From a virus, in IMG/VR virus record IMGVR_UViG_3300008116_000018: a stretch of DNA of 64,000 bases; one strand, written 5' to 3'. Made by a program: the position numbers and the translations under genes. Positions 11,751 through 52,271 of this stretch are shown here, in pieces. The notes under the pieces are model-generated. The model did no database searches. It was not told the origin of the DNA and saw nothing but the letters and a program-made list of their open reading frames with translations. Position 1 is the first letter of the stretch; the number at the start of each line of letters is the position of its first letter.

Positions 11751-11825
11751 TGGTGGGCTGACTAGGAATTGAACCTAGACTCAATGAATTATGAGTTCAC
11801 TGCTTTACCATTAAGCTATCAGCCC
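11751..11825 (-). tRNA. tRNA-Ile2/Met(CAT)
   Basis: cloverleaf, loop CTCATAA, encoded CCA; overlaps the last 15 nt of hldD. Confidence 0.9.
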
Positions 11826-12584
11826 GTTTACTTTACTCATGTCTGCACGTGTATATTCTTGATAACTGTTTTTCAAATTATCTGGCATTGGAATTTCTAC
11901 AATATCAGCTTTATGCTTATCTGCAATTTCCTCAGCAACATCTAAAAAACTTTTTGTCTCACCTGTTCCAATGTTAAAAACACCAGACTCTTTACAATCT
12001 AAGAACTTCAAATGATATTGTATCACACTTTCTACAGGAATGAAATCCCTGAAATATTTGTCACTACCATGGAAGACTTTAATCTTGCCAGTTTCTTTAG
12101 CTTGTTTGGCAAACTGAGTTTGTGGACTTGCTTGATTGCCCTTATGCTCTTCACCAGAACCATACACATTAAAGTATCTAAAACCTTGTACAATTGATCC
12201 GCATGGATGTTTACGCACATGACGTTCAAACAAATACTTCGACCATGCATATGGTGTTCTTGGGTCTAATGGCGACTCTTCGGTAAACTCTTGATTCAAA
12301 CCATATACACTCGCTGAACTTGAGTATTGAAAATTAACACCAAACATCTTACATGCATCATACAGTTGAATGCTGAAATCTAAATTTTGTGTTAAAACTT
12401 TTTCAATGTCTTTCTCTGTTGTTGCACTGATTGCGCCAATGTGAATAACCCAATCTTGTTCCATAACACTTGGTAATTGTTTATCGCCCCATTCATACGT
12501 ATCAACAGAATGTCCTGCATTCTCTAATGCAGTAAGCATATGACTACCGATGAAACCTTTGTGACCCGTCAGAAGAATTTTCAT
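11811..12584 (-). CDS. hldD: ADP-L-glycero-D-manno-heptose 6-epimerase-like SDR
   Basis: TGHKGFIG, SSASVYG, YAWSK, GFRYFNVYG, RDFI, YQEYTRAD. Confidence 0.85.
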   Translation of the reverse strand: MKILLTGHKGFIGSHMLTALENAGHSVDTYEWGDKQLPSVMEQDWVIHIGAISATTEKDIEKVLTQNLDFSIQLYDACKMFGVNFQYSSSASVYGLNQEFTEESPLDPRTPYAWSKYLFERHVRKHPCGSIVQGFRYFNVYGSGEEHKGNQASPQTQFAKQAKETGKIKVFHGSDKYFRDFIPVESVIQYHLKFLDCKESGVFNIGTGETKSFLDVAEEIADKHKADIVEIPMPDNLKNSYQEYTRADMSKVNGLIA

Positions 12585-12937
12585 TTCTGAGAATCTCCAG
12601 GAAGAACTCTATAATTGTCTTCAACGGAATCTGGAGTAGACACTTCAATGATTGTGCCTTCTTCTAAGCAAATCACTTGATGTGGTTCTAGTGGCTCATT
12701 GCGCCAAACGTCACCCTCATTCAGAATTGTGTTACGCATACTAGCATCTTTAGTCTGAATGTACTTAACTTCAAACTTGCCATTCAAGACATACCATGTT
12801 TCATCTTTGTGTGCATGAAAGTGCATACTGAATTTTGCGCCTGTGTTAAACTTCAACAGCTTACCGCAATACTTATCATTGGTTGCAAAAATGAATTCGT
12901 GCCCCCAACCTTTTTCAACAAAGCCTTCTAATCTCAT
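12581..12937 (-). CDS. cupin sugar-isomerase-like protein
   Basis: KGWGHE, SMHFH...KDETWYV, IIEVSTP...DNYR. Confidence 0.8.
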   Translation of the reverse strand: MRLEGFVEKGWGHEFIFATNDKYCGKLLKFNTGAKFSMHFHAHKDETWYVLNGKFEVKYIQTKDASMRNTILNEGDVWRNEPLEPHQVICLEEGTIIEVSTPDSVEDNYRVLPGDSQK

Positions 12938-13725
12938 TGTATCTCCTTTAGTGTGGGTGCATAATTACCCACATGCTGTACTGTAATTGACGATGCTTTA
13001 TTTGCAAATTTGATTGCATCATCAATGCTATTCGTCACAAGATATTGATAAGCTAATGCGGCTAAGAATGTATCGCCTGCACCACACACATCAAGAACAT
13101 CAACTTTTTTTGTTGGGTAATTTGTATTGACATGTTCACTACGTAGCATTGCGCCATCGGCACCCAATGTTACAATCATATCCCATGCATATGACTCAGC
13201 CGCTTCAAATTCTTTTTCGTTGATTTTAACAAAAGCACCATTGAATGCTTCTAAGTTTCTTTTCTTCGTATCGATAAAAACTGGTCCATTAAAATCGTGA
13301 ATCAGATTTTGGATATGCTCATAAGTTAAAAAGCCTTTGTTGTAATCAGATATAACAACAGCATCATAACCTTCGGTATCTACAATTCCATTCCACGGCT
13401 CTATCTTTGGCTCTTCATCTATTCTGACGATTTGATATCCAGACTTTTCGTCTATGATTCTAGTCTTTGTGATTCTTGGTTCGCCATTGACACCTGCCGC
13501 TTGATTTGAAATTATCGTTGTGTCACAGCCGAGTTTGTACAGATTGCTATGGACATTTCGTGCCATACCAAGTCTGGTTTCTTTTCGTGTTAGTTTGATT
13601 ACGGGAATTGGTGCTTCTGGACTCAATCTGTCGATTGTTCCATATTGATAAACATCTATGCAAGAATCACCGAGTAGCAATATCTTGAATTTTGTTTGTG
13701 GTTGAGTACTGTTCAAGTCTGTCAT
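12934..13725 (-). CDS. hldE: heptose-7-phosphate kinase (HldE domain I, PfkB family)
   Basis: RLSPEAPIPV, SDYNKG, DVCGAGDTF. Confidence 0.88.
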   Translation of the reverse strand: MTDLNSTQPQTKFKILLLGDSCIDVYQYGTIDRLSPEAPIPVIKLTRKETRLGMARNVHSNLYKLGCDTTIISNQAAGVNGEPRITKTRIIDEKSGYQIVRIDEEPKIEPWNGIVDTEGYDAVVISDYNKGFLTYEHIQNLIHDFNGPVFIDTKKRNLEAFNGAFVKINEKEFEAAESYAWDMIVTLGADGAMLRSEHVNTNYPTKKVDVLDVCGAGDTFLAALAYQYLVTNSIDDAIKFANKASSITVQHVGNYAPTLKEIQ

Positions 13726-14068
13726 AAAATTTAATTTCTTTACAGAATTCGGCACCAATGATCGGTGTGTTTCTGTAGTCACTTCCTTTAACCATTATAT
13801 CAGGCTTATAGTCACGAATCAAGTTTATCAATTCTTCATCGGTATCAAACACATCTACTCTATCTACGTATTTAAGTGCGAATAATAATGATGTACGTTC
13901 ATACTCGGTATTGATTGGTCTATCTGCACCTTTTAATTCTTTGATGCGTCTGTCGCTATCAGTAAGCACGTACACGTATGCGCTAGGATAAGATTTTGCA
14001 TACTGCAATAATCGCAAGTGTCCTAGATGTACAATATCAAATGATCCGTTTACTATAATTTTCATCAT
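13667..14068 (-). CDS. heptose-1-phosphate adenylyltransferase (HldE domain II)
   Basis: NGSFDIVHLGH, LKGADRPIN, VKGSDY, YSTT. Confidence 0.88.
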   Translation of the reverse strand: MMKIIVNGSFDIVHLGHLRLLQYAKSYPSAYVYVLTDSDRRIKELKGADRPINTEYERTSLLFALKYVDRVDVFDTDEELINLIRDYKPDIMVKGSDYRNTPIIGAEFCKEIKFYDRLEQYSTTNKIQDIATR

Positions 14069-14079
14069 ACATTTATATA

Positions 14080-14166
14080 TGGTGCGAGTAGCCGGACTCG
14101 AACCGGCACACCTTTTAAAGCGAGAGATTTTAAGTCTCTTGTGTCTACCAATTTCACCATACTCGC
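14080..14166 (-). tRNA. tRNA-Leu(TAA)
   Basis: cloverleaf with long variable arm, CCA. Confidence 0.95.
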
Positions 14167-14170
14167 TAAC

Positions 14171-14245
14171 TGGTCCGGCGTGAGGGAATCGAACCCCCAT
14201 AATGACTTTAGAAGAATCATGTCCTATCCGTTGAACGAACGCCAG
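14171..14245 (-). tRNA. tRNA-Arg(TCT)
   Basis: loop CTTCTAA, CCA. Confidence 0.93.
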
Positions 14246-14264
14246 AATTAATTTCTATACACGT

Positions 14265-14293
14265 AGTATAGTCTACATTTTCTATCTTGTCAA
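14265..14293 (-). promoter_or_regulatory. sigma70 promoter inside tRNA array
   Basis: TTGACA-17-TATACT. Confidence 0.75.
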
Positions 14294-14294
14294 G

Positions 14295-14368
14295 TGGAGC
14301 GGGGTAAGAGAATCGAACTCTCAGCATTAGCTTGGAAGGCTAAGGTATTACCACTATACGAACCCCGC
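14295..14368 (-). tRNA. tRNA-Gly(TCC)
   Basis: loop CTTCCAA, U73, CCA. Confidence 0.95.
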
Positions 14369-14375
14369 ATTTTTT

Positions 14376-14449
14376 TGGCTACCCACCAGGGACTCGAACC
14401 CCGACCAACGGTTTTGGAGACCGTGATGCTGCCATTACACCAGTGAGTA
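14376..14449 (-). tRNA. tRNA-Trp(CCA)
   Basis: loop CTCCAAA, CCA. Confidence 0.93.
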
Positions 14450-14450
14450 A

Positions 14451-14753
14451 TTATTTGTTTAATTGTCTGAACTTAACTTCTTTGGTTTCTTCATTGTACT
14501 TATGAATTGCATCATACTCATCATCATACAATCCTAATTCTTCATTAGCAGTATGTAACTTGTCTAACGCATCTTGGCGTTTCTTATTGAATGCTTCATA
14601 GCCTTCTTTGGTTCCCAATTCATATCCTTTATCGGAATGAATTTCTTCAGCCGATTTGATATTCTTTTTAAAGATGGCATCAAATCGATTTGCGTATTCT
14701 TCCTGACTTACGCTAAATGGACGTGGTGCGCTTCCTTTTCCACCATCACTCAT
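14451..14753 (-). CDS. hypothetical protein
   Basis: MSDGGKGSAPRPFSV N-terminus common in T4-like phages. Confidence 0.7.
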   Translation of the reverse strand: MSDGGKGSAPRPFSVSQEEYANRFDAIFKKNIKSAEEIHSDKGYELGTKEGYEAFNKKRQDALDKLHTANEELGLYDDEYDAIHKYNEETKEVKFRQLNK

Positions 14754-15196
14754 AAAATCACCCTATGATATTCGTAGTTAACTGTATCGTCATTCTCTCT
14801 AAAAACAACTGCACCATTACGCATATGAAAACGTTTAGCCATTTCAGTCTTAGGACTCAGCGTAACGTATCTTTGAATCTCTGGTTTGTTTTCTTTGATG
14901 TGTTTAACAGCATCAAAAATTAATGTGCGACCTGCACCTGGAGCATAACTCCAAATGGTATAAAATATTGCAACAATCGGTTCAGATGAAATCTGAAACA
15001 ATTCAGTTTCTTTTGTTGGAATTTCTGTTTGATAACTTACGCATGTGATTGCTTTCACTTGTTCATTTTCGTCACGTAACACAAAGATATCTTTGTTGTC
15101 ACCAACTCTGTCAACATGTGGAATATGAGGACGCACAGGGTCTTCACTTAACATACTCATTACACTATCAGTAAACGATTTTATTAGATATAACAT
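14750..15196 (-). CDS. GNAT-fold protein resembling the malonyl-CoA decarboxylase catalytic domain
   Basis: AIFYTIW...GAGRTLI...YVTLSP...AKRFHMRNGA parallels MCD motifs AVFYSI/FVTLSP/RFHLGNGA. Confidence 0.6.
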   Translation of the reverse strand: MLYLIKSFTDSVMSMLSEDPVRPHIPHVDRVGDNKDIFVLRDENEQVKAITCVSYQTEIPTKETELFQISSEPIVAIFYTIWSYAPGAGRTLIFDAVKHIKENKPEIQRYVTLSPKTEMAKRFHMRNGAVVFRENDDTVNYEYHRVIL

Positions 15197-15217
15197 TCTA
15201 TACTTTCATTTCTTATA

Positions 15218-15292
15218 TGGTGGAGAATAAGAGATTCGAACTCTTGACTATTGCTTGCAAAGCAATTGCGTTCCCAATTACGCCAATCCCCC
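15218..15292 (-). tRNA. tRNA-Ala(TGC)
   Basis: loop TTTGCAA, G3:U70, CCA. Confidence 0.93.
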
Positions 15293-15303
15293 ATTATTAT
15301 ATT

Positions 15304-15380
<77 letters not shown>

Positions 15381-15390
15381 ATATTTATAC

Positions 15391-15464
15391 TGGTGCCCCA
15401 TGACAGAATCGAACTGCCGTAACCTGATTACAAAACAGGTGTAATGCCATTATACTAATAGGGC
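15391..15464 (-). tRNA. tRNA-Thr(TGT)
   Basis: loop TTTGTAA, CCA. Confidence 0.92.
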
Positions 15465-15470
15465 TAAAAC

Positions 15471-16214
15471 TTAAATTATCTTCTCCATTATATTCTTTGC
15501 TAAGTTATCCACATCGGCTCTTGTTGTGCCTCCGAGAATAACAATAGCATACTGTTCACCATTCTTATGTACGATCATCACAAGACACTTACCAGCCGCA
15601 TTCGTTGTGCCAGTTTTAGATACTTCAATGATATCATATTTGTTCATCAACTTCACGTTAGTGTTATTGACTGGAATGTGTTTCTCTCTATTCTTCTTAT
15701 CTACGACTTTCAAATCGTATCTACTCAATGCAGATATATCACGTATCTTATCATGCCTGTACGCATCTGTCAACATGATAACTAAATCTTTTGCGGTACT
15801 AATGTTCTTTGCACTCAGACCAGATACATCATCAAATTTTGTATCGTACATTTGAAGCATAATTGCACGTTTATTCATTTGATAAACTGTCCACAATTTA
15901 CCACCCATGCTTTCTGCTAATGCTTCTGCGGCTCTGTTGTCACTTTTGACTAACATTAAATTCAACAATTCTTCTCTAGTGAATTTCTTGTGTGAATAGA
16001 ACATTCCTTTATATGGAACTTTCTCATCCAATGAAACTCCACTCTCAAGTAACACCAATGCAGTCATCAGTTTCGTAATGCTTGCTATTGGTCTCATTTT
16101 ATCAATTTCAGCATCAACAATCGGATATTGTTTTGTGATGTTGTATGCGTAAACTGTAATAGCATTAGCACTCAAACAAGTCAATAGGATTAGAGATAAG
16201 ATTATTTTTTTCAT
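15471..16214 (-). CDS. D-alanyl-D-alanine peptidase, family S11 (PBP7-like)
   Basis: signal peptide; ASITKLMT (SxxK), SDN (SxN), KTG. Confidence 0.92.
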   Translation of the reverse strand: MKKIILSLILLTCLSANAITVYAYNITKQYPIVDAEIDKMRPIASITKLMTALVLLESGVSLDEKVPYKGMFYSHKKFTREELLNLMLVKSDNRAAEALAESMGGKLWTVYQMNKRAIMLQMYDTKFDDVSGLSAKNISTAKDLVIMLTDAYRHDKIRDISALSRYDLKVVDKKNREKHIPVNNTNVKLMNKYDIIEVSKTGTTNAAGKCLVMIVHKNGEQYAIVILGGTTRADVDNLAKNIMEKII

Positions 16215-16228
16215 ATTCTTCTTTGTAA

Positions 16229-16307
16229 TGGCTCCGAGTAAGAGGATCGAACTCTTCTAACCAGTGATTAACAGTCACGCCCATGCACCTTGCTCGGGTT
16301 TCTCGGA
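16229..16307 (-). tRNA. tRNA-Asn(GTT), atypical
   Basis: loop CTGTTAA, G73, CCA; A7:A66 mismatch, A8, enlarged D-loop. Confidence 0.8.
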
Positions 16308-16314
16308 ATAAAAT

Positions 16315-16388
16315 TGGAAGCGGGTGTTGGATTCGAACCAACGATGCACCTGGCTTATGAGACCGGTGTGGTGACCGCCCTACCCGCT
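16315..16388 (-). tRNA. atypical tRNA-like RNA with CAT anticodon
   Basis: perfect acceptor and T arms, CCA; reduced D-arm; bulged anticodon stem. Confidence 0.75.
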
Positions 16389-16401
16389 ATATTATATATC
16401 T

Positions 16402-16478
16402 TGGAGTGAGTGACAGGACTCGAACCTGCATAGAACGGATTTGCAATCCGTAGCCTAACCATTCAGCGGCACACTCAC
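16402..16478 (-). tRNA. tRNA-Cys(GCA)
   Basis: loop TTGCAAA, U73, CCA. Confidence 0.92.
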
Positions 16479-16487
16479 ATAAAAACT

Positions 16488-16562
16488 TGGCGATGCGTGG
16501 GAGAATCGAACTCCCGTAAGCGGATAGACAATCCGCAGTAATAACCTCTATACGAACGCACC
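16488..16562 (-). tRNA. tRNA-Asp(GTC)
   Basis: loop TTGTCTA, G73, CCA. Confidence 0.92.
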
Positions 16563-16571
16563 TAAAAAACT

Positions 16572-16656
16572 TGGTGGAGACAGTAAGATTCGAACCTACT
16601 CACCCGAAAGAACAGATTTACAGTCTGCCGCAACTCTCCAACTTTGCCGTATCTCC
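16572..16656 (-). tRNA. tRNA-Tyr(GTA)
   Basis: loop CTGTAAA, long variable arm, CCA. Confidence 0.93.
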
Positions 16657-16671
16657 AAAATACTAAACTCA

Positions 16672-16747
16672 TGGTACACGATAGGGGAATCGAACCCCTC
16701 TTCCCGCCGTGAAAGGGCGGTGTCCTAAACCGATAGACGAATCGTGC
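16672..16747 (-). tRNA. tRNA-Glu(TTC)
   Basis: loop CTTTCAC, CCA. Confidence 0.95.
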
Positions 16748-16770
16748 ATACTTTTTTAATCTATGAATAG

Positions 16771-16799
16771 AGTATAACACTCTAAACATTTTCTGTCAA
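16771..16799 (-). promoter_or_regulatory. sigma70 promoter inside tRNA array
   Basis: TTGACA-17-TATACT with extended -10 TG. Confidence 0.78.
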
Positions 16800-16808
16800 C
16801 AACATTTT

Positions 16809-16896
16809 TGGCAGAGAGTATGAGATTCGAACTCATGCACCGCTTTCGCAATGACAGTTTAGCAAACTGCTGGTTTAACCACTCACCCAACTCTCT
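16809..16896 (-). tRNA. tRNA-Ser(GCT)
   Basis: loop TTGCTAA, long variable arm, G73. Confidence 0.93.
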
Positions 16897-16903
16897 ATAA
16901 TTT

Positions 16904-16993
16904 TGGCGGAAGCGGTGAGATTCGAACTCACGGAACATTTCTGTTCGACAGTTTTCAAGACTGTTGCCATAAACCAGACTCGACCACACTTCC
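16904..16993 (-). tRNA. tRNA-Ser(TGA)
   Basis: loop CTTGAAA, long variable arm. Confidence 0.95.
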
Positions 16994-16999
16994 ATAACT

Positions 17000-17074
17000 T
17001 GGTGCGCCCTGAGAGAATCGAACTCCCACTCGTAGGTTCGTAGCCTACTGTAATATCCATTTTACTAAAGGCGC
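17000..17074 (-). tRNA. tRNA-Arg(ACG)
   Basis: loop CTACGAA, CCA. Confidence 0.95.
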
Positions 17075-17085
17075 ATAAAAACATT

Positions 17086-17162
17086 TGGTGCCCTCTCTCA
17101 GATTCGAACTGAGACTTTACGGCTTCTAAGACCGTCCTCTCTACCAATTGGAGTAAGAGGGC
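17086..17162 (-). tRNA. tRNA-Leu(TAG), short variable loop
   Basis: loop CTTAGAA; 5-nt variable region AAAGT. Confidence 0.9.
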
Positions 17163-17165
17163 ACT

Positions 17166-17239
17166 TGGTTCCCAGAGAAAGAATTGAACTTTCGATAATC
17201 GCTTATCAAGCGACCGTTATACCATTTAACTATCCGGGA
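17166..17239 (-). tRNA. tRNA-Ile(GAT)
   Basis: loop TTGATAA, CCA. Confidence 0.9.
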
Positions 17240-17248
17240 CTATCTTGT

Positions 17249-17323
17249 TGGTACCTTGTGACGGGATTGAACCGCCGACCTTCTCCTTGTAAGGGAGACA
17301 CTCTACCGCTGAGTTAACAAGGC
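17249..17323 (-). tRNA. tRNA-Val(TAC)
   Basis: loop CTTACAA, CCA. Confidence 0.95.
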
Positions 17324-17332
17324 AATTTTCTT

Positions 17333-17408
17333 TGGGGTGACCTATGGGATTTGAACCCATCCTATCGGAATCACAATCCGAGGTGCTGACCGCTAACACT
17401 AAGGTCAC
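17333..17408 (-). tRNA. tRNA-His(GTG)
   Basis: loop TTGTGAT, C73; genomic -1 base is T. Confidence 0.93.
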
Positions 17409-17420
17409 ACCAAAGAAAAC

Positions 17421-17495
17421 TGGTAGGGGCACCGAGAATCGAACTCGGATTTACTGGTTAAAAGCCAGCTACTCTAGCCGTTGAGTTATACCCCC
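17421..17495 (-). tRNA. tRNA-Lys(TTT)
   Basis: loop CTTTTAA, CCA. Confidence 0.94.
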
Positions 17496-17499
17496 AAAT

Positions 17500-17574
17500 T
17501 GGTGGTGACAGTTGGATTTGAACCAACGACCGATTGCGTATGAAGCAATTGCACTACCGCTGTGCTATGTCACC
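17500..17574 (-). tRNA. tRNA-Met(CAT)
   Basis: loop TTCATAC, CCA. Confidence 0.9.
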
Positions 17575-17577
17575 ATT

Positions 17578-17651
17578 TGGCAGGGGATACAAGAATCGAA
17601 CTTGTGCCAACGGAATCAAAATCCGTTGTGCTACCATTACACTAATCCCCA
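17578..17651 (-). tRNA. tRNA-Gln(TTG)
   Basis: loop TTTTGAT, G73, U1:U72 mismatch. Confidence 0.93.
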
Positions 17652-17718
17652 TCATAAAAAATATGGATGCAAATTGTTAAAGAACGTTTTGTTGAACCTC
17701 TATCGACTCAACATATGA

Positions 17719-17780
17719 AGTATAACACAATCGGAAAGACTGTCAACAACTATTTTCATAGATGTTGTTTTCATACAACA
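17719..17780 (-). promoter_or_regulatory. palindrome-associated sigma70 promoter at head of tRNA array
   Basis: TTGACA-16-TATACT; palindrome 17763-17780. Confidence 0.85.
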
Positions 17781-17781
17781 C

Positions 17782-17818
17782 AAAGAAAAACCCCCTAGAG
17801 TTTTCAGTCTCTAGGGGG
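17782..17818 (-). terminator. intrinsic terminator (attenuator)
   Basis: CCCCCTAGAG-8 nt-CTCTAGGGGG perfect 10-bp stem followed by TTTTTCTTT. Confidence 0.92.
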
Positions 17819-17870
17819 CTTGTCTTTGTATTCTCTTTGGACTTATGGTCCTCAGGTATAACAAGCCCCC
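17814..17870 (-). promoter_or_regulatory. antiterminator helix
   Basis: GGGGGCTTGT (17870-17861) is perfectly complementary to ACAAGCCCCC (17823-17814), which includes the 5 C at the terminator stem base. Confidence 0.8.
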
Positions 17871-17968
17871 ATCACTGGTGCGTGGCAATCGGATTTCTCT
17901 GAGCGAGAAATACTCTGCCACGTAATCGGCATATAATTTCTTGTTGAGAGTTTCGATATTAAATTCAT
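17852..17968 (-). CDS. putative attenuator leader peptide (38 aa, not in ORF track)
   Basis: MNLISKLSTRNYMPITWQSISRSEKSDCHAPVMGACYT*; ATG 1 nt after the mazG-like stop; 19 amino acids, 31 distinct codons. Confidence 0.75.
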   Translation of the reverse strand: MNLISKLSTRNYMPITWQSISRSEKSDCHAPVMGACYT

Positions 17969-17969
17969 T

Positions 17970-18251
17970 TTAGTTTACTGTTTCTTCGTTAAAAATATTA
18001 GACCATTTCTGGAGTTTTGCTTTCTTGTTTGCGGATGCTCTATCTACTTCATCAATGCTAATGATACCTGTTTCAATCATCAACTGAATCATACAAAATA
18101 AATCACCAACTTCTTCTGTCAATCGTTCACGATTAGATGCACCATTGTGTTCACCATCTAAACCAAATCTAAAAACTTTACTGATTGCCTGTGTCACTTC
18201 GGCACATTCTTCTTGTGCAATGAGTAAAACTTCTTTTTCAACACTATTCAT
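17970..18251 (-). CDS. MazG-like all-alpha NTP pyrophosphohydrolase
   Basis: EECAEV...SK...EEVGDL motifs. Confidence 0.85.
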   Translation of the reverse strand: MNSVEKEVLLIAQEECAEVTQAISKVFRFGLDGEHNGASNRERLTEEVGDLFCMIQLMIETGIISIDEVDRASANKKAKLQKWSNIFNEETVN

Positions 18252-18274: not shown

Positions 18275-18480
18275 AAAATGCTCTGCGAATCTCGGCGGTA
18301 ATTATAGAACATCAAGATATGACGCTATCATACCCATCACACGTTCCTTCCACCCGCTCCCCGACAGATTCCGTTCTCGCATTGCCAGCGGCCTTTCGGT
18401 TTAAAGACTACCACCCGTAGCTGTCACACTACTTCTCATCCTGTGGGTCACAGTATCCAGAGACTAACCCGGAACGTTCT
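18275..18480 (-). ncRNA. candidate structured ncRNA (~205 nt)
   Basis: ORF-free, GC-richer than flanks; paired termini and at least six hairpins/helices. Confidence 0.7.
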
Positions 18481-49496: not shown

Positions 49497-52271
49497 TTAA
49501 TCTAAATCGCTTACGCTTTTGTCTGAACGCCACATTTGGCAAGACCAATAGTTTGCTTTCCACTTTGGTCCGGGATTGTCGCAACCGTGTCTAGCACGAT
49601 AACTCTTTAATCTCTCAGGATCGTCACGTTTGATTTCCATATTGGGATCACCAAAACGAACGACAACAACTTTACCATTTGGTCCCATAGTGTAGACACC
49701 AAACTTCTTCGGACCATCAGATGTTCTGAATGGATCGTTCAACTTAACAGACTTACCTTGATACTCTGCTTCGTTAACAACTTGTTCCCAATCAACTTCT
49801 TCTAGTACTTCTTCTACTTCTTCGTTTTTAGGGCGACAGTCGGGAACCATTCTGTTGCCTTTTTTCTTCATACCAACTTGTTTGTGTGTGTCCCAACATG
49901 CTTCGTCAACGACAGCATTTTCATCACAATCATCACAACATGTTTCTTCAGATTGTCCTGGCGTATCTTTTGCATACTTCTTACGCATTGCATCTGTACC
50001 CCACTCTAATGCTTCAGCAAATCTAGAAAACTCTTCGTTACTTCTAACTTTGGAAGCTAAGTCTTTATCTGCTTTACCCCAAGTGCCAGGACCTTTTGTA
50101 ATGAATGAATTCACTCTAGCAAATGCCCATTGCTGTGGTGTTGTTCCAGGACGATGGCCACCTTGCCATGCGGCCATACCTCTGTCGTAAACTGCTTTGA
50201 GAATGCTATAAGCAATACCAGACTTTTCTGATTTCTTTTTCAAGCCTTCGATTTCTTCTAAGATTGGCTTGAATTCTTCGTAAGCATCACCAAACTCATC
50301 TGGTTCCATTTGACTTGCGTACATATCTAACTCTGCGCCAGAAAACTCACCATCGTCTTCTTCCTCGCCACTATCTTCGTCATCATCTTGATAATCAAAG
50401 TCGCCTTCGAATTCTAAGTAATCACGTACTGTTGAAACGTAATCGGCAGCCTTAGTGATCTTAGATAGAACCCAAGCATCTGGCTCTTCATCCATTTCAT
50501 CCATCATTTCAAGCAATTCTTCTGCGTCTTGAATCATGTTAGAAACTTCAATCTGCGCCATTGACAGTCCATCAGTCTCATCATAGTCATTGTCATCGTA
50601 CTCATCGTCTTCGCCCATGAGTTTCATACCAGTAACGTCTTGAATCATTTTCCAAGCGGCTGATTGATTCTTATCGGCAATAAGTTTCTTGAGTTTTTCT
50701 TTTTCTTGTGGTGTTGCAACTTGGAAGAACTTCATCATCTCCATTGCACCAATGTTGCCTTTGTATGCGGCTTCATCAATAGATTCTTTTTGCAACTGCG
50801 TCTTTGTCATTCTAAACAATGCATCGCTTGAAGTTACCATATCAAGTAGCGTTGTCAACAAATCATTTGTGACATTTCGTTCTGACGGATTCAACATGTC
50901 GCCAGATTTTAATTTCTCAACGGAACGCTTAATGACTGTAAGAGATTTAGTGTCTGCCAATCCCAAACGAACCAATTGATCTAATCTAGAAACTTCTTTT
51001 CTTTCTTCTGGTGTCTTTACTGCTTCACCATACATCTGTTTGAATTTGAGTGTATGCTTTGATTGTTGCATACCTTTTTCTCTTGCCTCTTTGTCACCAG
51101 GCGCATCTTTATATGCACTCTTGTCTGAATCTGATTTTGGTCCAGTTTTCTCAAAGTGTGATGCTCTAGCGTCTTTTGTATCTTTGTCTAAACCAACATA
51201 ATACTTTTTCGGTTGTGTTCCATCTCTCTTTGCAATATCTTTGTCTTGCGGTATAGTTGGTTTCTCAACAATGAATTGCTCGAACATATGATTCAAATCT
51301 TCTCTTTTCATCATCATGTTTTTACGTGCAACTTCTTTACTTCTAGCGGCTGGCACTAAACGTACTGCAAACTTTTTAATTGCAGGCAACATCTTTTGCA
51401 ATCTAGTGTCGATTGCAATTTTCTCTCCAGTACCCAAGTCTGCATAGTTCTTACCACCAGCAAGGCGTCCTCTGAAGAATTGATATGCCATTTTAGCGGC
51501 TCTTCTTTTTAATCTCTTAGGGTCGGCAAAACGTTTTGCTTGTAATGCTCTTGCTCTGACTAAACGCTTTTGAATTCGTTTAAATTGTTGCGCTCTTTGT
51601 CTACGTTGTTTGTAGCCAAGAACTGCTTCGTCTTGTTGTTCTATTTCTTCGTTCATGCCACCACCTATGTATTTGTCTAAAAGTTTTTTCACCTTAGCTT
51701 TACTTCTTGCTTTTGGATATAAATCACTGATGATTTTATCTCTGCCTTCTGAGTCTGCGTCCGAATACATTTTTCTAACTTGACTACCAGAGAATGCTTC
51801 TTTGCCATTAACTTTAAAGTCGTGTTTCTTAGTCACAAAAATATATGCGTGTGTTTCGAATGATTCACATTTATCAATGCTGACAAATGGCTGATAGTAC
51901 GCTGGCGAACCATCTTTCTTTGTGTACTTCATTGGGTCACGTTCAGAACGAACAAGAATGAGAACATCTTTCTTTTCGTCATACTTCTTCATAATCTCTT
52001 CTGGATTAATCGGCTGAACGACCTGAACGAAATCGTCTGTAACTCCTGCTTGCTGTGCTAGGAATTCTTTGTCTTTGAATGGGATTGGGCGAACCTTTGT
52101 GTCGTTGCTAGATGCAACATAAAAGTCTGGAGTGCGAAATTTGGATTTGGCTTGAGTGTAACTACTCAAATGACCGGCGTGAAATGGCTGAAAGCCACCG
52201 CCATATACGACAATTACTTTGCCTTTGGCTTTTGCTTCATCAAGCAATATTGATTCTTTAAACGATTTCAT
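49497..52271 (-). CDS. HxGH nucleotidyltransferase (cytidylyltransferase-like) fused to multiple head-protein modules
   Basis: GGFQPFHAGH, SGSQVR; QQWAFARVNSF and VRFGDPNM...YWSC modules. Confidence 0.75.
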   Translation of the reverse strand: MKSFKESILLDEAKAKGKVIVVYGGGFQPFHAGHLSSYTQAKSKFRTPDFYVASSNDTKVRPIPFKDKEFLAQQAGVTDDFVQVVQPINPEEIMKKYDEKKDVLILVRSERDPMKYTKKDGSPAYYQPFVSIDKCESFETHAYIFVTKKHDFKVNGKEAFSGSQVRKMYSDADSEGRDKIISDLYPKARSKAKVKKLLDKYIGGGMNEEIEQQDEAVLGYKQRRQRAQQFKRIQKRLVRARALQAKRFADPKRLKRRAAKMAYQFFRGRLAGGKNYADLGTGEKIAIDTRLQKMLPAIKKFAVRLVPAARSKEVARKNMMMKREDLNHMFEQFIVEKPTIPQDKDIAKRDGTQPKKYYVGLDKDTKDARASHFEKTGPKSDSDKSAYKDAPGDKEAREKGMQQSKHTLKFKQMYGEAVKTPEERKEVSRLDQLVRLGLADTKSLTVIKRSVEKLKSGDMLNPSERNVTNDLLTTLLDMVTSSDALFRMTKTQLQKESIDEAAYKGNIGAMEMMKFFQVATPQEKEKLKKLIADKNQSAAWKMIQDVTGMKLMGEDDEYDDNDYDETDGLSMAQIEVSNMIQDAEELLEMMDEMDEEPDAWVLSKITKAADYVSTVRDYLEFEGDFDYQDDDEDSGEEEDDGEFSGAELDMYASQMEPDEFGDAYEEFKPILEEIEGLKKKSEKSGIAYSILKAVYDRGMAAWQGGHRPGTTPQQWAFARVNSFITKGPGTWGKADKDLASKVRSNEEFSRFAEALEWGTDAMRKKYAKDTPGQSEETCCDDCDENAVVDEACWDTHKQVGMKKKGNRMVPDCRPKNEEVEEVLEEVDWEQVVNEAEYQGKSVKLNDPFRTSDGPKKFGVYTMGPNGKVVVVRFGDPNMEIKRDDPERLKSYRARHGCDNPGPKWKANYWSCQMWRSDKSVSDLD

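Follow-up and report, generated by a model that had tools for sequence, protein, structure and literature searches.

A near-complete amino-acid leader at the head of a phage tRNA array: a candidate transcription attenuator with broad sensing

The tRNA arrays of phages are usually seen as helpers for codon usage or as stand-ins for host tRNAs that defence nucleases have destroyed. How the expression of such an array is matched to need is a question raised by a locus in the IMG/VR virus record IMGVR_UViG_3300008116_000018, of which a stretch of 64,000 nucleotides (hereafter "the window") was analyzed. A short open reading frame (ORF) of 38 codons, termed the leader, is located between a MazG-like gene and an intrinsic terminator, and an array of tRNA genes follows (Table 1). 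An earlier note, made from the DNA letters alone, had described this ORF as a codon census that appeared built to poll all amino acids and that matched the phage tRNA set, both lacking only Phe. These two parts of the description fared differently: a near-complete amino-acid content wired to a terminator switch was supported, and the match to the tRNA set was not. Our preferred reading, to which we assign about an even chance, is that the leader works at the entry to the phage tRNA array as a ribosome-operated (leader-peptide) transcription attenuator, and that it is broad in its sensing.

Table 1. Positions of the features discussed, numbered from the first nucleotide of the window.
Feature	Position	Strand	Description
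MazG-like pyrophosphohydrolase gene	17970..18251	(-)	93 aa; Pfam MazG E 9e-6; PHROG 4856 E 7e-25
ORF-free region upstream of MazG	18275..18480	(-)	Flagged as structured in the earlier note; no Rfam family at a permissive threshold
Leader ORF	17852..17968	(-)	38 sense codons; frame kept in homologues (see text)
Codon 23 of the leader	17900..17902	(-)	Ser in the window; most relatives have Phe, others Leu or Ile
Hairpin inside the leader ORF	17881..17922	(-)	Codons 16-29; predicted stable in single and consensus folds; clade without covariation
Predicted antiterminator arm	17861..17870	(-)	From the third base of codon 33 through codon 36; perfect 10-nt complement of the terminator 5' arm
Terminator 5' arm	17809..17823	(-)	Common to antiterminator and terminator
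Intrinsic terminator	17778..17821	(-)	13-bp stem, 8-nt loop, T-run
First array promoter	17719..17746	(-)	Sigma-70-type, 11 of 12, extended -10; strong, near-consensus; between terminator and tRNAs
boxA-like element	17674..17685	(-)	rrn-type; just before the first tRNA
tRNA array	11751..17651	(-)	23 confident tRNAs and one aberrant Asn-like sequence; no tRNA-Phe
Promoter inside the array	16771..16799	(-)	Same type as the first array promoter
tRNA-Cys(gca)	16405..16478	(-)	Added by Infernal; missed by ARAGORN
CAT-anticodon tRNA-like gene	16315..16388	(-)	Reduced D arm; 27 bits, below the Rfam threshold
Asn slot	16229..16307	(-)	Aberrant tRNA-Asn(gtt)-like sequence
D-alanyl-D-alanine carboxypeptidase (Peptidase S11) gene	15471..16214	(-)	247 aa; inside the tRNA array
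Promoter inside the array	14265..14293	(-)	Same type as the first array promoter
Gene for a 924-aa protein	49497..52271	(-)	Cytidylyltransferase-like N-terminus and DUF5824

The leader, the terminator and the array in the window

The start codon of the leader is separated from the MazG stop codon by 1 nt, and the leader has no Shine-Dalgarno sequence of its own in the window; its start is apparently coupled to MazG termination. Translation of the ORF reproduced what had been reported of it, namely 19 amino-acid types (with Phe absent), 31 distinct codons in 38 positions, and both codon boxes of Leu, Ile, Ser and Arg. Codon runs are absent, and the even spread of 19 types over 38 codons is the distinctive feature of the leader. 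The GC-ending codons had been called uncommon for this genome; they are not, as the GC3 of the leader (0.45) was equalled or exceeded by 11% of the gene windows. The C-ending codons CTC, TCC and ACC are located in boxes for which the phage tRNA has U34 only, and under standard wobble rules they would not obviously be readable by the phage tRNAs. The Val and Gly codons are confined to the tail of the ORF, in or just before the antiterminator arm. Codons at such positions could not be sensed in the classical model of attenuation, in agreement with the caveat that the earlier note had attached to Gly and Val. The stable hairpin inside the ORF, in the loop of which codon 23 is found, may be a pause hairpin or a hairpin of the 1:2 type.

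Several features of an attenuator are present at this locus: a short ORF directly upstream of an intrinsic terminator, a mutually exclusive antiterminator pairing, and a stop codon (beginning 7 nt past the arm) placed for a terminating ribosome to mask the 5' strand of the antiterminator. The fold strength of the whole leader-terminator region corresponded to a z of -6.3. Two further features are absent, i.e. runs of codons tied to the regulated genes and, in the window, a dependence of the tRNA genes on read-through, as a promoter is located between the terminator and the tRNAs. When the region was compared to Rfam, none of the leader families (His_leader, Trp_leader, Thr_leader and others) was matched at the gathering score, nor was the T-box. 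At a permissive threshold, His_leader was returned with 28.5 bits (49 are needed) and with an equal match on the opposite strand; this sub-threshold match occurs on both strands because the terminator is palindromic, and the candidate was rejected.

In the proposed mechanism, ribosomes finishing MazG would re-initiate on the 38-codon leader. A ribosome that reached the leader stop codon would cover or unwind the 10-nt arm (codons 33-36), the terminator would form, and transcription arriving from upstream would end before the tRNA genes. Slow decoding at almost any earlier codon, or ribosomes that were scarce or absent, would allow the arm to pair first with the terminator 5' arm; the polymerase would then enter the array and add to the output of the array's own promoters. 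Operating in this manner, the leader would be a general sensor of decoding capacity and not of one amino acid. We infer that stalling causes read-through and that read-through matters for tRNA levels. Set beside the codon runs of classical leaders, a single codon for each amino acid makes for a weak sensor.

A total of 22 tRNAs was called in the window by ARAGORN, the first of them beginning at 17651, and the anticodon pairs that had been listed for Leu, Ile, Ser and Arg were among them. No tRNA-Phe was detected in the 64-kb window by ARAGORN, by Infernal or by BLAST with the tRNA-Phe of a relative. In the Asn slot, where relatives carry a normal tRNA-Asn, the aberrant sequence has retained the anticodon loop, the T arm and the 3' end, but its acceptor stem is mismatched, its D arm is odd and its anticodon stem has 4 bp. 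It was called by ARAGORN only at a relaxed threshold, and it was not matched by the Rfam tRNA model at E<=10. The absence of tRNA-Phe was therefore confirmed for the window, but the stronger statement that only Phe is missing holds only if the aberrant Asn-like sequence is counted.

Conservation of the unit in relatives

Relatives were collected using searches with MazG, a DNA motif, boxA and the terminator, all of which were blind to leader composition. A first DNA pattern was unspecific and returned mainly known contigs; the terminator pattern yielded mostly unrelated loci and one new relative. The layout of leader, terminator and tRNA array was common to about 25 close variants (the window's clade) and at least eight further phage lineages, which are designated here by the numbers of their contigs (L015, L041, etc.). 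The leader unit keeps its place at the heads of tRNA arrays even where the upstream gene differs. No match to the region was found among isolate phages using megablast and blastn. Elsewhere in the window, the nearest isolate matches of the 924-aa protein were Pelagibacter phage HTVC008M and Methylophilales phage Melnitz, which indicates a phage without a close cultured relative.

At least six indel events were identified within the leader ORF among the about 25 variants of the window's clade, and all of them were multiples of three; the spacer after the leader stop codon, unlike the ORF, had indels of 1-4 nt. The start and stop codons of the leader were retained in every lineage. Where MazG precedes the leader, the start is coupled to its stop codon; behind other genes, the leader has its own Shine-Dalgarno sequence, as in the L230 group, whose upstream gene encodes a membrane protein. 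The in-frame indels, the kept start and stop codons and the coupled start suggest that the leader is translated. Variable sites were distributed over the three codon positions as 16:15:20. The pN/pS of the leader was 0.38 (0.22 for MazG), a value that implies some constraint on the peptide or on an overlapping RNA, and pS was 0.22 (0.29 for MazG). The pN/pS and the low pS together are compatible with a translated frame that overlaps a constrained RNA, and they fit that description.

The same indels, set against the mixed lengths just downstream, argue against the possibility that the region is a structured RNA element (a 3' UTR, a small RNA or a processing or binding site) with the open frame as an untranslated by-product. 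The start and stop codons, kept in every lineage with a coupled start or a Shine-Dalgarno sequence, argue in the same direction, as does the lack of any Rfam family above threshold. An RNA element would be well served by the strong fold, by the pS below that of MazG and by the invariance of synonymous sites in the stems. It would also be served by the G-run of the arm, which is conserved across different frames: it is read in another frame in the L230 group than in the window, and it is thus conserved as RNA. Taking all of these observations into account, we regard an untranslated RNA element as very improbable.

Between lineages, the leader peptides could not be aligned except for a short motif around the single Trp, and neither a Pfam family nor a PHROG family was matched by the leader peptide. 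Conservation of the amino-acid sequence as a folded protein, which the earlier note had named as the alternative to be checked across homologues, was not observed; the peptide drifts beyond alignment and the frame is kept. A reading of the Cys, His and Cys residues as a metal-binding motif was rejected, as the first Cys is replaced by Tyr, Arg or Ser among the relatives.

The complement between arm and terminator was compared to shuffled sequences for the window (10 nt, P 0.0004), L321 (10 nt, P 0.0002), L015 (8 nt, P 0.007), L254 (9 nt, P 0.001), L230 (7 nt, P 0.02) and L041 (11 nt, reached in none of 5000 shuffles); the remaining lineages were assessed by arm length. In the lineages that were compared to shuffled sequences, the arm-to-stem spacing was 30-37 nt. 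Other strict terminators in the family loci had complements of no more than 7 nt. The terminator stem of L041 differs in sequence and is matched by a changed arm, and yet other stem sequences are found in L406 and L381, with 12-nt arms; the arm of L440 is 8 nt long. Weak arms of 5-6 nt are found in L428, L492, L511, L429 and L242. In most lineages, the stop codon follows the arm at a distance of 3-14 nt; in L406 and L440, the two overlap. When minimum-free-energy structures were calculated for the nascent RNA (i.e. with the 3' arm not yet made), the arm was paired with the terminator 5' arm in 6 of 7 representatives, the window among them. Within the close clade, RNAalifold found too little variation for structural covariation.

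That the arm changes in step with the unrelated stems of the L041, L406, L381 and L440 terminators is difficult to reconcile with an ordinary small protein gene that ends the MazG operon and is followed by an insulating operon-end terminator, the complementarity and the diversity having no regulatory meaning. Such a gene would keep its reading frame and would show some constraint, as the leader does with its pN/pS, and the promoter after the terminator makes a plain insulator sensible. Its peptide, however, is unconserved across lineages and without a Pfam or PHROG family, its motif-like Cys and His residues vary, and the unit stands at the heads of tRNA arrays despite different upstream genes (with its own promoter in L428). 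An ordinary gene with an insulator is, in our judgment, unlikely.

The diversity of the leader was compared to several null distributions. In the long ORFs of the window, at least 19 amino-acid types were present in 2.1% of the 38-codon windows, and at least 31 distinct codons in 0.34% of them; about 5% of random open frames of the leader's length had at least 19 types. Of the window's 57 ORFs with 35-40 codons, the leader was the most diverse. By this comparison to random windows, which had been proposed as a check, the excess over chance is mild for this ORF alone: the window leader by itself is unusual, not compelling.

The relatives make a stronger case than does the window leader alone. 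With Phe at codon 23, most close variants encode all 20 types in 38 codons. Twenty types were also found in the leaders of L015 (37 codons), L321 (39 codons), the L230 group (36 codons) and L428 (40 codons), and 19 types in 40-41 codons in those of L041, L406/L421, L492, L511 and L429; the L440 leader has 16 types in 36 codons. By chance, at least 19 types would be expected in 3% of frames of 36 codons and in 7-9% of those of 40-41 codons, and all 20 in 0.3-1%. Outside the window's clade, 19-20 types in 36-41 codons were observed in 7 of 8 lineages, with a binomial probability of 6e-8 to 7e-7 that overstates independence, because the lineages probably have a common ancestor. Among 184 distinct small ORFs in the family loci, five had 20 types, and all five were leaders.

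Simulations indicated that completeness outlasts divergence that random substitution would usually break. After an equal number of random substitutions, 20 types were kept in 1-2% of cases (window clade to L015 or L321, and L230 to L254). When the same sites were mutated with random outcomes, 20 types were kept in 0.5-5% for L015/L321 and L230/L254, and in 21% for the window clade to L015. Singletons that are lost return at other places, as is seen for Lys and Asn when L230 is compared to L254, and for Val at three different positions within the window's clade. Selection appears to hold the leader near one of every amino acid.

The return of these singletons and the recurrence of 19-20 types in 7 of 8 out-of-sample lineages also bear on a translation-coupled attenuator in which amino-acid completeness is incidental, and both speak against it. 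An attenuator of that kind would report the closeness of the ribosome to the polymerase (as in the pyrBI type) and not a slow codon. It would be in keeping with the conserved anatomy of the switch, with the presence of that switch in L440 beside an ordinary 16 types, with tail codons that are beyond sensing, and with a leader content that does not follow the tRNA content (see below). We consider this reading quite unlikely. The L440 switch with its 16 types, together with the 5-6 nt arms of L428, L492, L511, L429 and L242, must be entered against an attenuator selected for its composition. A broad, ribosome-operated attenuator is supported because the frame is kept, the peptide drifts, the arm changes with the stem, and 19-20 types recur.

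Leader content and tRNA content

The claim that leader content tracks tRNA gene content, including the joint absence of Phe, was not supported, with counter-examples both in the window's clade and in other lineages. Within the clade, tRNA-Phe was absent from each of the four contigs in which codon 23 encodes Ser (the window, L005/L210, L200 and L207) and present in 12 of the 15 contigs with Phe at that codon (one-sided Fisher P 0.03). This association rests on a single shared Phe-less haplotype, as all six Phe-less arrays have the same Arg/Ser deletion junction; the change to Ser may have happened a single time on that haplotype. In favor of tracking, the four Ser contigs have different sequence backgrounds in the Gln-to-Val tRNA stretch, which lies between the two sites. 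In L014 and L222, tRNA-Phe is absent and the Phe codon is kept; L009 has tRNA-Phe, Ile at codon 23 and no Phe codon. Codon 23 is located in the hairpin loop and varies freely.

Other amino acids gave similar results. The window leader has two Asn codons despite the aberrant tRNA-Asn, and the L170 leader has three Asn codons with tRNA-Asn absent. No Gly codon is present in the leaders of L406/L421, yet there are two tRNA-Gly; L492 has no Phe codon, yet tRNA-Phe is present. Identical leaders are found in L421, which is without tRNA-Val, and in L406, which is without tRNA-Cys and tRNA-Tyr. Moreover, the tRNA sets are near-complete, and a "match" between leader and tRNAs is thus close to automatic. 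The joint absence of Phe from the leader and from the tRNA set is most likely due to linkage or coincidence, and it is a weak hint. It would take on meaning if leader and tRNA content were co-adapted, such that loss of tRNA-Phe led to selection that removed the leader's single Phe codon; polling by the leader would then be limited to amino acids that have a tRNA in the array. We judge such co-adaptation to be distinctly improbable.

The slot between tRNA-Phe and tRNA-Ser(gct) was itself variable, as the near-identical phages L002, L012, L199 and L225 differ there. The variants carry Phe only, Ser(tga) only, or both, and the "Phe only" arrays contain a Ser-like tRNA sequence of roughly 90 nt that is not called by ARAGORN.

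Array promoters, known attenuators and significance

The extent to which the switch can control the array is restricted by the promoter between the terminator and the tRNAs. The three array promoters are near-identical, with the same -35 and the same -10; the same promoter recurs elsewhere in related contigs, with an A-rich upstream part. With a promoter and boxA after the terminator and two promoters inside the array, the tRNAs of the window do not depend on read-through, and since strong promoters are located downstream of the terminator, read-through can only add to tRNA expression. The arrangement differs in some relatives. A deletion of about 70 nt has removed the first array promoter in L001, L002, L005 and L012, with the terminator, boxA and tRNAs remaining, and L440 has no promoter between the terminator and the tRNAs. 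The first tRNAs of L001, L002, L005 and L012 would depend on read-through, and in L440, too, the switch would matter more.

The boxA-like sequence, which we take to be close to the rrn boxA consensus, was conserved between the promoter and the first tRNA in every lineage found, including L015, L041, the L230 group, L406, L428 and L440. Its conservation suggests that phage tRNA arrays borrow rRNA-type antitermination from the host. The head of the array resembles the leader of an rrn operon in that a strong promoter of the sigma-70 type precedes a boxA-like sequence near the rrn consensus. This rrn-like unit is the array's own promoter unit and not the leader switch, and the binding of Nus factors to it is putative.

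The leader itself may be compared to trpL, hisL, thrL and ilvL (of which those of ilv and thr are multivalent). Like these, it would be a translated leader with a mutually exclusive antiterminator and terminator, and with a stop codon that lets a terminating ribosome mask the antiterminator strand. The enterobacterial leaders have runs of the regulatory codon or codons, gate biosynthetic genes, and have no promoter in between; the phage leader has about one codon per amino acid, would gate tRNAs, and is followed by a strong promoter after the terminator.

The closest published analogue, to judge by anatomy and composition, would be the whiB7/wblC upstream ORF (uORF) of Actinobacteria, likewise a short uORF overlapping an antiterminator/terminator switch, in which stalling at many different codons leads to read-through and whose sequence drifts between species (PMC10274678). 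In M. smegmatis, the whiB7 uORF encodes 19 of the 20 amino acids, and it is induced by knock-downs that affect 18 of 20 amino acids (PMC10274678). Its single Trp codon senses Trp starvation, and removal of that codon abolishes the response (PMC10274678); thus, one codon per amino acid can work. The phage leaders have the near-complete amino-acid set of the whiB7 type, a likeness of composition for which homology is not claimed. Unlike the phage leader, the whiB7/wblC uORF is bacterial and chromosomal, controls a transcription factor, and is enriched in Ala rather than even; it has no known tie to tRNA genes or phages and no sequence similarity to the phage leader.

Among open-access papers and preprints, no published account was found of the attenuation of phage tRNA arrays or of a leader that covers all amino acids. 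The leader element recurs in many uncultured freshwater phages, and it offers a signature for the annotation of phage genomes: a short ORF ending in a copy of the terminator 3' arm, followed by boxA and tRNAs. If the preferred reading is true, the leader would sense demand for decoding capacity in general, and attenuation, known from amino-acid biosynthesis and from the stress response of whiB7, would reach the translation machinery itself.
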